DNA of 64,000 bases from Escherichia phage WPEC3: sequence record PV611058. The stretch is one strand, 5' to 3'. This document shows positions 47,617 to 57,509 of the stretch, piece by piece. Every line of letters begins with the position of its first letter. Position 1 is the stretch's first letter. A program made the translations under genes and the position numbers. The notes under the pieces are model-generated. The model saw only the letters and a program-made list of their open reading frames with translations. It did not search any database and had not been told where the DNA came from.

Positions 47617-47988
47617 TTATAACATACGTTTTTTACGAATAGTATTGTGGATATTTTTTAAGTAGTTCACACCTTTACACAACCCATAAAATACACCAGC
47701 ACATACACCAAATGCAGGTATCATACATGCAAACATCGTTATCAATTCCCACATCTCCATGCCATCTTGATTCGGTCCAAGGTCAAAGATAACAACCGAA
47801 ACCAAACCTGTGATACTTAGCATATAATATGCCATGAAGATAATAAAAGAAACAATACCAACATCAGAGCGAACTGAATTTAGCATATTATATACTGGGG
47901 TTACACAGAAGTAATACAATAACCAAATCAAAGAACCTAAACTAAACACAATAATAGTAATGATCGAAAATATTTCACGATAACTCAT
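47617..47988 (-). CDS. small 3-TM membrane protein family, member 1 (123 aa)
   Basis: ORF; three hydrophobic segments; basic C-terminal tail; SD AAGAGGA. Confidence 0.65.
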   Translation of the reverse strand: MSYREIFSIITIIVFSLGSLIWLLYYFCVTPVYNMLNSVRSDVGIVSFIIFMAYYMLSITGLVSVVIFDLGPNQDGMEMWELITMFACMIPAFGVCAGVFYGLCKGVNYLKNIHNTIRKKRML

Positions 47989-47989
47989 T

Positions 47990-48352
47990 TTAGTTCCTCT
48001 TACCTAAACGCTCATGGATTTCGGAAATCTTATTATACATCCATGCCAGCAACTCAACGGATGCACAGAGAATAACCACACACAGTGTTAGTGAACATAC
48101 CATAATACCAAATGTTATAAAATTCAAACTCGATGTTAATAATGCAACCAGCATTAGAATAAAACCAAAATTGAATGCCGTACTCAACACAGTATATGCT
48201 GGACTATATCTCCTTTGTATTACATCATATATATTTGATAATGGTCGCTTATGGAAGTACTTCCCGATGCACACGAATGCATTCAGTGAGAAGATAAATG
48301 TATACGCCATTACCATTAATTGACCAATAAAAGATAATTCAATATTATTCAT
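47990..48352 (-). CDS. small 3-TM membrane protein family, member 2 (120 aa)
   Basis: ORF; hydrophobic segments; SD GAGGA. Confidence 0.65.
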   Translation of the reverse strand: MNNIELSFIGQLMVMAYTFIFSLNAFVCIGKYFHKRPLSNIYDVIQRRYSPAYTVLSTAFNFGFILMLVALLTSSLNFITFGIMVCSLTLCVVILCASVELLAWMYNKISEIHERLGKRN

Positions 48353-48353
48353 G

Positions 48354-48722
48354 TTATCCTCGTTTGCGGTATTTGATGCTTTGGTGCATTCTCTGAAAAT
48401 GTGGAACTAATACATATTGTACGGTTTGCCAAATTACCATCAGATTATGGACAGCACCACCGAGTAGACCAAACACTACACAGATAATTGCCAGTACTGG
48501 ATCACCATCTACCATACCCCATTTGAATATATGTAAAATCCATACAGTGATAAGTAGTAATAAACTAATCCAATACGTAGTAAAAAATCCTGCATGTAAT
48601 TCATAGTCATCAGCAATTTCATCGTATACGGTTTCCAAGAAGGATACACAGAAGAACTTGCCAATAATAACAATTGTACTAATAAACAACATAGCAGTTA
48701 ATATAATAAGTGCAATTTCCAT
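48354..48722 (-). CDS. small 3-TM membrane protein family, member 3 (122 aa)
   Basis: ATG at 48722; SD GAGGG. Confidence 0.65.
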   Translation of the reverse strand: MEIALIILTAMLFISTIVIIGKFFCVSFLETVYDEIADDYELHAGFFTTYWISLLLLITVWILHIFKWGMVDGDPVLAIICVVFGLLGGAVHNLMVIWQTVQYVLVPHFQRMHQSIKYRKRG

Positions 48723-49036
48723 CACATCCCTCGTTTACGCTTTTGATTGCGTCTAAATTCGGTTAGCCCACGAGTAATCGGTGGCATCAGACTACATAAA
48801 AAAATAACAGTTGTTGGTAATAACATGAAGTCAATCATTGCTGTATTAACAGGTGGTTCACATATCAAATAATACAAGCAAGTAATACTAATTATGGTTG
48901 ACCCAATAAAAGGAATACAAAATTCTTTTATCTGTTTTTCAACATAATCAAACATCTTCAGTACAAATAAAAATCCAACCCAACACATAATAAAATAGAA
49001 TGAATAAAGCGTGTAAATCAATGTTACGATATCCAT
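48722..49036 (-). CDS. small 3-TM membrane protein family, member 4 (104 aa)
   Basis: ORF; start overlaps upstream stop. Confidence 0.65.
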   Translation of the reverse strand: MDIVTLIYTLYSFYFIMCWVGFLFVLKMFDYVEKQIKEFCIPFIGSTIISITCLYYLICEPPVNTAMIDFMLLPTTVIFLCSLMPPITRGLTEFRRNQKRKRGM

Positions 49037-49374
49037 TAGTACCTCGCATCAGGAACTTTAGCACGTAATTTATGAACGACTGGGAACAACAACAAACTTA
49101 CATATGCAATAGTTGAACCCCAATAGAATACTAATATAATTGGTTCACCATTGGAACGGAACCCTCTACTAATCATTGAGTAGTGAATAATTGGCATAAT
49201 CATCGCCATACCAAACCATGCGTGTAATTTTAATTGCAACAGGTGTTCAGAGATGAATACTGAAATTGGTCGTTTGAAGAACCACATAAGAAAGTAGAAT
49301 CCAGCACTAAGAATATAGTACATAATACTAACTTTCATATACCACGGCAGTAAGTGTAAAAAATATTCCATCAT
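49036..49374 (-). CDS. small 3-TM membrane protein family, member 5 (112 aa)
   Basis: ORF; C-terminal ..KLRAKVPDARY. Confidence 0.65.
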   Translation of the reverse strand: MMEYFLHLLPWYMKVSIMYYILSAGFYFLMWFFKRPISVFISEHLLQLKLHAWFGMAMIMPIIHYSMISRGFRSNGEPIILVFYWGSTIAYVSLLLFPVVHKLRAKVPDARY

Positions 49375-49718
49375 TCCTCCGGTATCTTGTTTCGAAGTTC
49401 AATCATAACACAACAAATTTTAATGGTCAAGTAAAAAACTACACATATCATACCCAATGTACCGTAAACTGCGGAGAATGCTGGCAGTACCTTTCCTGTG
49501 AGTGTTGCTACAATACATGCTATCAATGTTGATGCAAACAACGATTGATTAATGAAAGAATTCATAAAATCTTCACCATTACGCTTATAGAATTGTCGTT
49601 TAAAATACCATCCTAGAAACATAACTACCCAAAATGTTACATAACCTGTTAGAATAATCCCTGCAATTGAATGTGCAACAGAACTACTCTTTAAAAACTC
49701 AAGATAAGATTCAAACAT
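49371..49718 (-). CDS. small 3-TM membrane protein family, member 6 (115 aa)
   Basis: ORF; C-terminal ..LRNKIPEE. Confidence 0.65.
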   Translation of the reverse strand: MFESYLEFLKSSSVAHSIAGIILTGYVTFWVVMFLGWYFKRQFYKRNGEDFMNSFINQSLFASTLIACIVATLTGKVLPAFSAVYGTLGMICVVFYLTIKICCVMIELRNKIPEE

Positions 49719-55826: not shown

Positions 55827-56207
55827 TCAAAATAAATTCATTTCATGTGCGTATTGTGGTTCAAGATGCGATAAGTTTTTGAAGCTTTCTTTCAACTCAG
55901 CATCATCTACATACACAGTACCTGGTACATTTCCCATAGTGAAACCTACCCACACAGTCATGTTACCAGTCCCTAAGCGTGGCATTGATAGCGAACCATC
56001 AGGGGAAACATCAAACGCTACACTGAAGTCATCAGTAACAACGTCAGAACCATTTTCGAGAATAATACATCCACTATCTTTAAGCTTCTGAATGTGGATA
56101 GCAGCCTCTACAGCACGTTTGAAGTTATAGTAAGACTCTTTATCCTCAAACATTGATTGTTTAATCAGACGCTTGTTTAGCTCGGTTACTTTGTGCATTT
56201 GACGCAT
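55827..56207 (-). CDS. hypothetical protein (126 aa)
   Basis: ORF; SD GGGAG; start overlaps stop of 56207-56464. Confidence 0.55.
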   Translation of the reverse strand: MRQMHKVTELNKRLIKQSMFEDKESYYNFKRAVEAAIHIQKLKDSGCIILENGSDVVTDDFSVAFDVSPDGSLSMPRLGTGNMTVWVGFTMGNVPGTVYVDDAELKESFKNLSHLEPQYAHEMNLF

Positions 56208-56464
56208 TACTTATCCATCTCCCACAGTTGTAGAATTTCATAAGAGCCTGGTGGTGCTGGATTCCTGATCTCAGGGAATTGAGTACTTTTAGGATTTCCA
56301 CCAGCATTAAATTCGTCAAGTAATGATTCCAGTTCGCGACGATCCTGAACAACATAAACACAATCACCTGAACCTTCTTCGAGAATCATTTCACTTCCTG
56401 CACAATCCCATACTGTTGAGATACATAGAATCTCTTTTGTATTTTTATTACGCAATGCAAACAT
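56207..56464 (-). CDS. hypothetical protein (85 aa)
   Basis: ORF. Confidence 0.5.
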   Translation of the reverse strand: MFALRNKNTKEILCISTVWDCAGSEMILEEGSGDCVYVVQDRRELESLLDEFNAGGNPKSTQFPEIRNPAPPGSYEILQLWEMDK

Positions 56465-56473
56465 AGCAATCCC

Positions 56474-56818
56474 CTATCGATTTGGCATTTTATCTCGTAA
56501 TTTCACAAGATAATCAATCACGGTACATCCTGAAATAAAGGTAATATAAGTACTGAAAAATCCTACCAGAATAAAGGCAACAAGCGTACTCCCATTTGGT
56601 TCTTCAGCTTTAATACCAATGATACCATCAGATGCAGTGAAAAATGTAGACATAAACGTTAGACATATGTACATCACTAATAAGAATTCATGTTCTAATG
56701 ACGGATAAAAACGATCAAAAAGTTTATAAAATTTAAAGTACAGTAGGAGTATACCAACAAAGGCATAGAAAGTAAACAGTGTTGTTATGATATATGATAT
56801 TAAATTTAAATTATACAT
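56474..56818 (-). CDS. small 3-TM membrane protein family, member 8 (114 aa)
   Basis: ATG at 56818 after SD GGAG; C-terminal ..LRDKMPNR. Confidence 0.6.
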   Translation of the reverse strand: MYNLNLISYIITTLFTFYAFVGILLLYFKFYKLFDRFYPSLEHEFLLVMYICLTFMSTFFTASDGIIGIKAEEPNGSTLVAFILVGFFSTYITFISGCTVIDYLVKLRDKMPNR

Positions 56819-56819
56819 C

Positions 56820-57161
56820 TCAACGCTCCGGTAGATTATCACGTAATGTTTTGATTCGATTATACAATTTCATTGCTACATTTCCAAATAAACCAAAACC
56901 CATTACTAAAATGTATGCGATGATCATAGTAATAATTACAATAGTACCTAGACTGTAATGTACTGCACTGATACCCATTATTGTTTCTACAATGATGTGA
57001 GCAACAGAAATAATCAAAAGTACTACTACAATTGGATGATTTGGATACATTCGGTTAAACAATGTTTTGTACTTAAAGAAGTACAGTACTCCACCAAATA
57101 AGAAGTACACAATGTAGATTGATGCAACGGCATAAGCAAACGCATTAGTGTAAAAAATCAT
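56820..57161 (-). CDS. small 3-TM membrane protein family, member 9 (113 aa)
   Basis: ATG at 57161 after SD AAGGA; C-terminal ..LRDNLPER. Confidence 0.6.
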   Translation of the reverse strand: MIFYTNAFAYAVASIYIVYFLFGGVLYFFKYKTLFNRMYPNHPIVVVLLIISVAHIIVETIMGISAVHYSLGTIVIITMIIAYILVMGFGLFGNVAMKLYNRIKTLRDNLPER

Positions 57162-57170
57162 TATCAATCC

Positions 57171-57509
57171 TTACTTTTCAGGGATTTTATTACGCCACTC
57201 ATCGATGCGATGAAGCAGTTTAAAGAGCAAAAATATCGGAACAGTAGCTATCATAGTAGCAATTGTTAGTAATGTCAACACCGATACGAGATTTAATTCG
57301 TCAGTACTATATCCACATACCAGTGCTTCAATTATCCCCCACGTACATGCACTGAACATCAAAAATGAAATTGGTGCATCGTAGTATATGCGTTGATATA
57401 AGGTCGTGTATCGGAAGAATGCAATAATGTAACAAAACATGTAATACACCCAAATTAACGATACTACATAAAATGATACCTTATTAATTAATTCAAAATG
57501 ATGTTCCAT
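57171..57509 (-). CDS. small 3-TM membrane protein family, member 10 (112 aa)
   Basis: ORF; C-terminal ..WRNKIPEK. Confidence 0.6.
   Translation of the reverse strand: MEHHFELINKVSFYVVSLIWVYYMFCYIIAFFRYTTLYQRIYYDAPISFLMFSACTWGIIEALVCGYSTDELNLVSVLTLLTIATMIATVPIFLLFKLLHRIDEWRNKIPEK

Follow-up and report, generated by a model that had tools for sequence, protein, structure and literature searches.

Two clusters of small membrane-protein genes

The window examined here is the whole of a 64,000 nt stretch of Escherichia phage WPEC3 (PV611058), in which an initial annotation had proposed ten paralogous genes for small membrane proteins, arranged in two clusters. All ten open reading frames (ORFs) were found on the minus strand where it had placed them, and encode proteins of 104 to 123 aa. 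Seven of them form cluster A (47617–50056), and three family genes form cluster B (56474–57509); the coordinates confirm that the two clusters flank the segment containing denV. The genes are listed from the first to the last of each cluster.

49718..50056, minus strand: A7, first gene of cluster A; 112 aa, three transmembrane (TM) segments, GGAG Shine–Dalgarno sequence before the ATG; 81 bits with the family hidden Markov model (HMM)
49371..49718, minus strand: A6; 115 aa, three TM segments, tail LRNKIPEE
49036..49374, minus strand: A5; 111 to 112 aa, weak second helix, tail LRAKVPDARY
48722..49036, minus strand: A4; 104 aa, the most divergent member
48354..48725, minus strand: A3; 122 to 123 aa, starting at GTG 48725 or ATG 48722
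47990..48352, minus strand: A2; 120 aa, without a clear ortholog in phage RaK2
47617..47988, minus strand: A1, last gene of cluster A; 123 aa, RaK2 ortholog 40% identical; AlphaFold predicted local distance difference test (pLDDT) score 78.9
57171..57509, minus strand: B3, first family gene of cluster B; 112 aa, AlphaFold pLDDT 77.7
56820..57161, minus strand: B2; 113 aa from ATG 57161, which has a Shine–Dalgarno sequence (the start first assigned, 57167, is a TTG)
56474..56818, minus strand: B1; 114 aa from ATG 56818, which has a GGAG Shine–Dalgarno sequence (the start first assigned, 56842, is a GTG)

A Shine–Dalgarno sequence precedes all ten starts. The genes had been described as overlapping or abutting. 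This holds for cluster A, where neighbors overlap by 1 to 4 nt or lie 1 nt apart, but the 23 nt overlap drawn between B1 and B2 (56474–56842 and 56820–57167) is an artifact of longest-ORF calling. It vanishes because the longest-ORF starts are replaced by the ATGs backed by Shine–Dalgarno sequences, and ATG 57161 and ATG 56818 are also the starts annotated in Escherichia phage Ecwhy_1. Relative to orthologs in phage 121Q, the ratio of nonsynonymous to synonymous substitution rates (dN/dS) lies between 0.10 and 0.37 for all ten genes (dS is saturated in distant comparisons); A7, for example, has a dN/dS of 0.27, and its BLAST alignment with 121Q gene 225 shows 80% identity. The ten genes are under purifying selection and are therefore functional.

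Over the seven genes of cluster A, the closest genome is that of Ecwhy_1 (354.5 kb, genus Asteriusvirus), with 99.4% identity; identity to 121Q is approximately 85%. These alignments place WPEC3 among the RaK2-like Asteriusvirus jumbo phages of approximately 350 kb rather than with classical T4-type phages, and its earlier description as a T4-type phage is not upheld. T4-like genes such as denV and nrdC.10 are present, and the late-promoter motif TATAAATA is likewise shared. Ten copies of one gene family had been regarded as unusual. The number is notable but not anomalous, because paralog families are routine in the RaK2-like clade: in RaK2 itself, approximately 10% of the gene products are paralogs (PMC3622015). 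At the profile level, the membrane-protein family is seemingly the second-largest paralog family of the genome. On the plus strand, approximately 17 paralogous ORFs for RCC1-like proteins ("DNA condensation protein") occupy 27293–47580, convergent with cluster A. Several of their homologs are virion proteins in phAPEC6, and an RCC1-like array likewise converges on the family array in a metagenomic relative.

Homology, topology, and conserved residues

Pairwise BLAST identities among the ten proteins are only 20% to 28%, and homology was therefore tested in four ways. A family HMM was built from the ten and iterated on the ORFs of the window and of two related loci, converging at 29 proteins. 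Searched against 1326 whole-genome ORFs (354 kb), it returned exactly the ten, which is the genome copy number in this ORF set. Members scored at least 67 bits and the next ORF less than 11 bits; the model passes over the other hydrophobic ORFs and is therefore not merely a detector of hydrophobicity. RaK2 members that had been kept out of the training set scored between 18 and 45 bits, relative to noise of at most 6.7 bits.

In a leave-one-out analysis, each member was removed together with its close relatives and compared with 30 of its own block shuffles, in which the local hydropathy profile was maintained. All ten outscored every one of their own shuffles, eight of them clearly (18 to 46 bits versus 7 to 18; A6, for instance, reached 36 bits versus 18). 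The two marginal cases were A4 (9.8 versus 8.5 bits) and A5 (14.1 versus 12.8 bits), and both are rescued by profile–profile alignment with hhalign, which links them to the family: A5 aligns with A6 at a probability of 95% (E = 4e-8), and the profile of A4 orthologs aligns with an A1–A3 profile at 82% over 101 columns. The same method joins B1, B2, and B3 at 83% to 98% (B3 to B2, 98%), A6 and A7 to B3 at 68% to 85%, and A1, A2, and A3 at 32% to 89%, with five of the six comparisons at or above 60% and A3 matching the A1 and A2 groups at 60% to 89%. Merged profiles of A1–A4 and of A5–A7 plus the B genes align with a probability of 72% to 87% (E of about 3e-6) over 107 collinear columns.

AlphaFold models of B3 and A1, both of moderate confidence (pLDDT 77.7 and 78.9), share one succession: a long helix, a helix of 7 to 8 residues, another long helix, and, after a loop, a third that extends into the tail (residues 2–31, 35–41, 45–66, and 74–108 in B3; 3–26, 30–37, 42–67, and 79–122 in A1). 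The initial claim that the ten are paralogs is thus supported by the leave-one-out HMM, by profile–profile alignment, and by the two models, and we checked for a similarity limited to hydrophobicity without finding it, the HMM selecting only the ten. The ten genes constitute one divergent paralogous family.

Hydrophobic segments were called with the Kyte–Doolittle scale, a 19-residue window, and a cut-off of 1.6. Three segments had been claimed for each protein, and nine of the ten have them; A5 has two, plus a weaker third that reaches 1.40 with a 17-residue window. Similarly, the C-terminal tail is basic, as claimed, in nine of the ten (net charge of the last 20 residues, +2 to +6) but neutral in A6 (net charge 0). 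Totaled over the ten proteins, lysine and arginine number 5 in the N terminus, 29 in loop 1, 4 in loop 2, and 45 in the tail. By the positive-inside rule, the predicted topology is N-out/C-in. In the predicted layout, the N terminus is short, acidic, and periplasmic; helices 1 and 2 are joined by a short amphipathic helix on the cytoplasmic side and helices 2 and 3 by a short loop in the periplasm; and helix 3 continues into a basic amphipathic tail in the cytoplasm.

In an alignment of 39 members, only two elements are conserved family wide. The first follows helix 1 and centers on an invariant phenylalanine (39 of 39), usually within [FY]-F-[K/R/C/H], so that the next position is mostly basic. 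The second lies in the tail and reads hydrophobic-x-x-hydrophobic-[R/H]-x-[K/N]-hydrophobic, with arginine or histidine present in all 39. Helices 2 and 3, the N terminus, and the periplasmic loop are conserved in hydrophobicity only. Among A5 orthologs alone, the alignment shows an invariant FLMWFFKR block and KLR..PD.R. The shared tail motif put forward earlier, (L/W)R(N/D/A)K(I/M/L/V)P(E/D/N), is the version of one subclade: it occurs strictly in four proteins (49036, 49371, 56474, and 57171) and as a near match in that at 56820 (LRDNLPE), and its family-wide form is weaker. Because the predicted topology is N-out/C-in, both family-wide motifs would face the cytoplasm.

At 49374–49395 and 56818–56835 (minus strand), the codons for the C-terminal Pro-Glu of A6 and B2 (CCGGAG) double as the Shine–Dalgarno sequence of the next gene, so part of the tail motif is under dual constraint. 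The idea that Pro-Glu is kept solely for this purpose holds at some junctions but was rejected, the proline being retained at junctions whose ribosome-binding site is located elsewhere, and in RaK2.

Comparison with known proteins placed the family outside described groups. Pfam, NCBIfam, and PADLOC scans of the ten, and a Pfam scan of 31 family members from four phages, gave scattered noise only (no PADLOC match at E ≤ 0.1). In a sequence profile search of the PDB, the best hits (E = 0.037) were to unrelated membrane proteins. Foldseek found no match in the PDB and none in BFVD below an E value of 2; the weak BFVD matches include "putative membrane proteins" of the related jumbo phages CBB and GAP32, which are suggestive but not significant. 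These searches found no link in sequence or fold to Imm, Sp, Sie, or defense-related models. Eight of the ten match PHROG families 27618, 26405, 33258, 27396, 19046, 19454, 19285, or phrog_16874 with E values of 1e-46 to 1e-60; B1 (56474) matches phrog_19285 weakly (E of about 1e-3), and A2 (47990) has no match. Seven of these PHROGs are labeled "unknown function" and phrog_16874 "membrane protein", and weak cross-matches link some of them. Whereas PHROG keeps the families separate, here they are joined as one superfamily with two shared motifs, both predicted to be cytoplasmic. The family is not described in a review of jumbo phages (PMC7824862) or in the papers on phages fEgEco12, Sharanji, phAPEC6, RaK2, and CBB. 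It is an old and narrow family, previously undescribed by these comparisons, within the familiar type of small accessory membrane proteins of large phages.

Operon signals, timing, and lineage restriction

The clusters are accompanied by the following features.

50124..50897, minus strand: gene for a T4 NrdC.10-like AAA-type ATPase, upstream of cluster A; weak match to Pfam AAA_16
50083..50114, minus strand: promoter-like site upstream of cluster A, TTGACA-17-TACTAT (TTGACAGTACTACACTATGGTAGTACTATAAC); 10 of 12 consensus matches
47585..47611, minus strand: hairpin terminator after cluster A; 12 bp stem followed by a T-rich tail
58246..58275, minus strand: sigma-70-type promoter; 11 of 12 matches

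Promoters were called as consensus matches. In the promoter-like site upstream of cluster A, the −35 and −10 hexamers are separated by a spacer with an 8 bp inverted repeat (AGTACTAC/GTAGTACT); the site is kept in Ecwhy_1, 121Q, Turkey5, and JNE01, and an equivalent of the hairpin lies 3′ of the A1 ortholog in 121Q and Turkey5. The promoter at 58246–58275 probably drives an operon encoding a 137 aa secreted protein, a 100 aa protein, B3, B2, and B1. Close gene packing, a promoter-like site ahead of each cluster, and the terminator hairpin after cluster A fit the proposal that each cluster is an operon.

Sigma-70 sites with at least 11 of 12 matches are strongly enriched in the window (35, many of them 12 of 12, versus 3.8 ± 2.0 in shuffled sequence). 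Thirty of the 35 are on the minus strand, which codes for short genes, including those at 50955, 53653, 55825, and 58275; the operons containing or preceding the clusters have such sites upstream of them, at 58275 and 50955. The minus-strand sites fall within 1–27000 and 47600–61400. The late motif TATAAATA, which precedes capsid and scaffold genes, is absent from 45000–59500. Because sigma-70-type promoters are present and TATAAATA is absent, early expression of the family is suggested, and the window appears to be largely an early-gene region. In the related phage CBB, the same early/late inference has been drawn, with RpoD-like promoters marking a presumed early region of short genes (PMC5259590). 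No family member appears among the entries examined of the phAPEC6 virion proteome table. The window contains only two TATAAATA motifs, at 60510 and 61752 (minus strand). The former is just upstream of a 503 aa structural-protein gene (58970–60481), which would therefore be a late gene inside an otherwise early-type region.

The arrangement resembles the variable genes in hyperplastic regions of T4-like phages that are bounded by PeSLs (composite terminator/early-promoter elements), which are short accessory genes lacking an assigned function with mosaic neighbors (PMC2839356, PMC4122927); as in a PeSL, a stem-loop lies between the −35 and −10 hexamers of a sigma-70 promoter at the boundary of cluster A (PMC4122927). 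It differs in that WPEC3 is a RaK2-like jumbo phage outside the Straboviridae and that the array is old and syntenic rather than recently shuffled. Relative to Ecwhy_1, the NrdC.10-like gene and the segment 50967–53191 have been replaced, whereas the family array is stable.

With tblastn, family members were found only in 35 Asteriusvirus and 9 Alcyoneusvirus records (Klebsiella phages RaK2, K64-1, Muenster, and others); Alcyoneusvirus comprises RaK2-like jumbo phages of Enterobacteriaceae. An HMM search of 1.84 billion representative proteins gave 22 matches at E ≤ 0.001, of which 21 have the size of members (99 to 127 aa) and one is a 601 aa protein matching in multiple stretches. IMG/VR yielded no members beyond 121Q and RaK2 themselves.

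Orthologs correspond one to one, in the order B3-B2-B1 ... A7-A6-A5-A4-A3-A2-A1, in 121Q, Turkey5/JNE01, and phage A4, the last having one B gene. RaK2 also has a single B copy, followed by A6, A6′, A7, A5, A4, A3, and A1, plus one divergent member. Copy numbers across genomes are 7+3, 8+3, 7+1, and 8+1: 121Q carries an extra A7 paralog and a split A4, gene A4 is duplicated in Turkey5, and in Salmonella phage SD-1_S14 A6 is cut to a 29 aa remnant. The metagenomic relative has six or seven members, with B-like and A-like genes in one array. Interspersed soluble small genes in the Turkey5 and RaK2 arrays were considered as hidden members and rejected. The A4 ortholog of 121Q (locus 14985–15300) is divided into two ORFs, genes 228 and 229, and is intact in Ecwhy_1 and phAPEC6; the split reflects a frameshift specific to this strain or else an error in sequencing. 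By the time of the common ancestor of Asteriusvirus and Alcyoneusvirus, the family had probably already divided into approximately seven A subfamilies and one or more B subfamilies.

The family array lies downstream of the NrdC.10-like gene in all six lineages examined for this. The gene directly precedes the array in 121Q, Turkey5, JNE01, and the metagenomic relative; in phage A4 and RaK2, the two are separated by a single small gene unrelated to them. NrdC.10-like sequences are far more widespread (tblastn matches in 1309 phage records, T4 included), and in the two other phages checked, the T4-like phage ime09 and PA5oct, no family member adjoins the gene. In the T4-like phage, nrdC.10 is followed by nrdC.9, nrdC.8, and nrdC.7; neither these nor the genes downstream of it in PA5oct are related to the family. 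The NrdC.10-like protein of WPEC3 (50124–50897) is 99.2% identical to that of JNE01 and only 59% to that of Ecwhy_1; because Ecwhy_1 is otherwise the closest genome, this looks like recombinational replacement.

Candidate roles and other features of the region

The reading we favor, tentatively and with somewhat less than even confidence, is that the ten genes encode functional, lineage-restricted integral inner-membrane proteins of approximately 105 to 125 aa with independent roles in host takeover or exclusion. Under this proposal, host sigma-70 RNA polymerase would transcribe the genes early, from tightly packed and possibly translationally coupled operons, and the proteins would insert into the host cytoplasmic membrane. 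They would form a nonredundant set of modulators, alike on the cytoplasmic face but distinct in the parts embedded in the membrane or exposed to the periplasm. They might serve host takeover or protection, for example by blocking DNA entry of competing phages or by neutralizing membrane-acting host processes; lysis and virion assembly are not favored.

Superinfection exclusion, immunity, and membrane effectors had been put forward as candidate roles, and these would fit the predicted early expression and inner-membrane location. Among superinfection-exclusion proteins, T4 Imm, T4 Sp, HK97 gp15, and P22 SieA are small phage inner-membrane proteins that are early and nonessential. The WPEC3 family resembles them as small phage proteins predicted to be early and located in the inner membrane, but comprises ten three-helix paralogs rather than a single gene, and the Imm model in Pfam is unmatched. 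A functional analogy of the Imm or Sie type would be plausible.

If the family consists of early inner-membrane modulators, it would represent an unexplored toolkit with which giant coliphages and Klebsiella phages, some of which have been proposed for therapy, might condition or defend the envelope of the infected cell. The gains of the analysis are the merging of seven "unknown" PHROG families, a predicted topology, two invariant residues predicted to be cytoplasmic, and an orthology map across two genera. With 22 representatives in a set of 1.84 billion proteins, the family is narrow, and no long-standing question depends on it.

Several points weigh against the proposal of independent modulators. 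The topology is predicted from two sources, the positive-inside rule and models of moderate confidence, and the cytoplasmic motifs may have a purely structural role, as interfacial anchors, and not form a face for binding partners. Timing is inferred from consensus promoters, and the site directly upstream of cluster A has only 10 of 12 matches. The comparison with Turkey5, in which family members are 26% to 50% identical to their orthologs and neighboring genes 75% to 99%, suggests, as does the variable copy number, that the ten genes are accessory and fast-evolving in character, but it is confounded by regional mosaicism. Finally, subunits of a single complex would explain equally well why seven distinct subfamilies have kept their order in both genera.

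That alternative, in which the paralogs are subunits of a single hetero-oligomeric membrane complex (a channel, pore, or platform), perhaps with the NrdC.10-like ATPase, seems to us unlikely, although it has several observations on its side. Roughly seven subfamilies keep a one-to-one correspondence and a common order in the Asteriusvirus lineages, and for the most part in RaK2; the stop/start overlaps suggest coupled, balanced translation; the ATPase gene stands before the array in five genomes and the metagenomic relative (with a small gene between in two); and a common partner could bind to the cytoplasmic motifs that the members share. Conservation of order is, however, weak evidence, because it is the rule for all genes of these phages. 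Membership is also flexible: there are one to three B copies, A7, A4, and A6 are duplicated in particular lineages, RaK2 lacks A2, only 29 aa of A6 remain in SD-1_S14, 121Q has a divided A4, and the metagenomic relative has A-like and B-like members reshuffled into one array. The ATPase gene, for its part, occurs in 1309 phage records, with no family member beside it in ime09 and PA5oct. More specifically, the family might form a new inner-membrane machine of this kind whose invariant phenylalanine and arginine/histidine dock the upstream NrdC.10-like AAA-type ATPase. We regard this as improbable; if true, RaK2-like jumbo phages would own an ATP-driven membrane complex early in infection.

Still less probable is a role as holin- or antiholin-like lysis timers. 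The proteins do share the layout of class I holins of the lambda S105 type (approximately 105 to 120 aa), being 104 to 123 aa long with three helices, a predicted N-out/C-in topology, and a basic, charged cytoplasmic C terminus, and an Arthrobacter phage holin is among the weak fold matches in BFVD, at a nonsignificant E value of 7.6. But no Pfam or NCBIfam holin model matched at E ≤ 1, either for the ten or for the 31 members from four phages. Lysis genes do not adjoin the clusters: the lysozymes annotated in Ecwhy_1 lie at approximately 122 to 125 kb and at 190.7 kb, and the clusters at approximately 330 to 340 kb. By consensus matching, the nearby promoters are of the early, sigma-70 type and lack the late TATAAATA motif, and ten paralogs far exceed a holin/antiholin pair.

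A chance resemblance through composition among unrelated hydrophobic or noncoding ORFs, to which the low pairwise identities, the slim margins of 48722 and 49036 over their own shuffles, and the spread over seven PHROG families might point, is scarcely credible and already largely refuted by the two residue positions invariant and in register across 39 members, the collinear full-length profile alignments, the passing over of every other hydrophobic ORF in 354 kb, the scores of the held-out RaK2 members, and purifying selection on all ten.

Beyond the clusters, the palindrome AGTACT occurs 291 times in the window relative to 21.6 expected (13-fold), for example in 47585–47611, 50083–50114, and 55798–55825, and CAGTACTG, the commonest 8-mer of the window, occurs 69 times relative to 0.7 expected. 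All three codon frames contain such sites, with approximately twofold enrichment between genes. The overrepresentation extends to other parts of Ecwhy_1 and to 121Q, Turkey5, phage A4, RaK2 (144 versus 9.6 expected), and the metagenomic relative, and is absent from the stretches of PA5oct and of T4-like phage that were examined; a literature search gave no explanation for it.

Two segments, 50967–53191 and 53662–54059, are missing from the corresponding region of Ecwhy_1. The first includes a gene (51316–52866) for a 516 aa protein with six tandem repeats of approximately 85 aa (CIIDPVYGEFWQ...); the second, an HNH endonuclease gene adjoining denV, is probably a homing-endonuclease insertion. 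Small proteins with signal-peptide-like N termini are encoded at 57806–58219 and 58647–58898 (minus strand), upstream of cluster B, and the gene at 57806–58219 is probably part of the cluster B operon. An 83 aa membrane protein with two helices (54728–54979) is 96% to 99% identical in 121Q and Turkey5. As predicted from these features, the region appears rich in envelope-targeted products.

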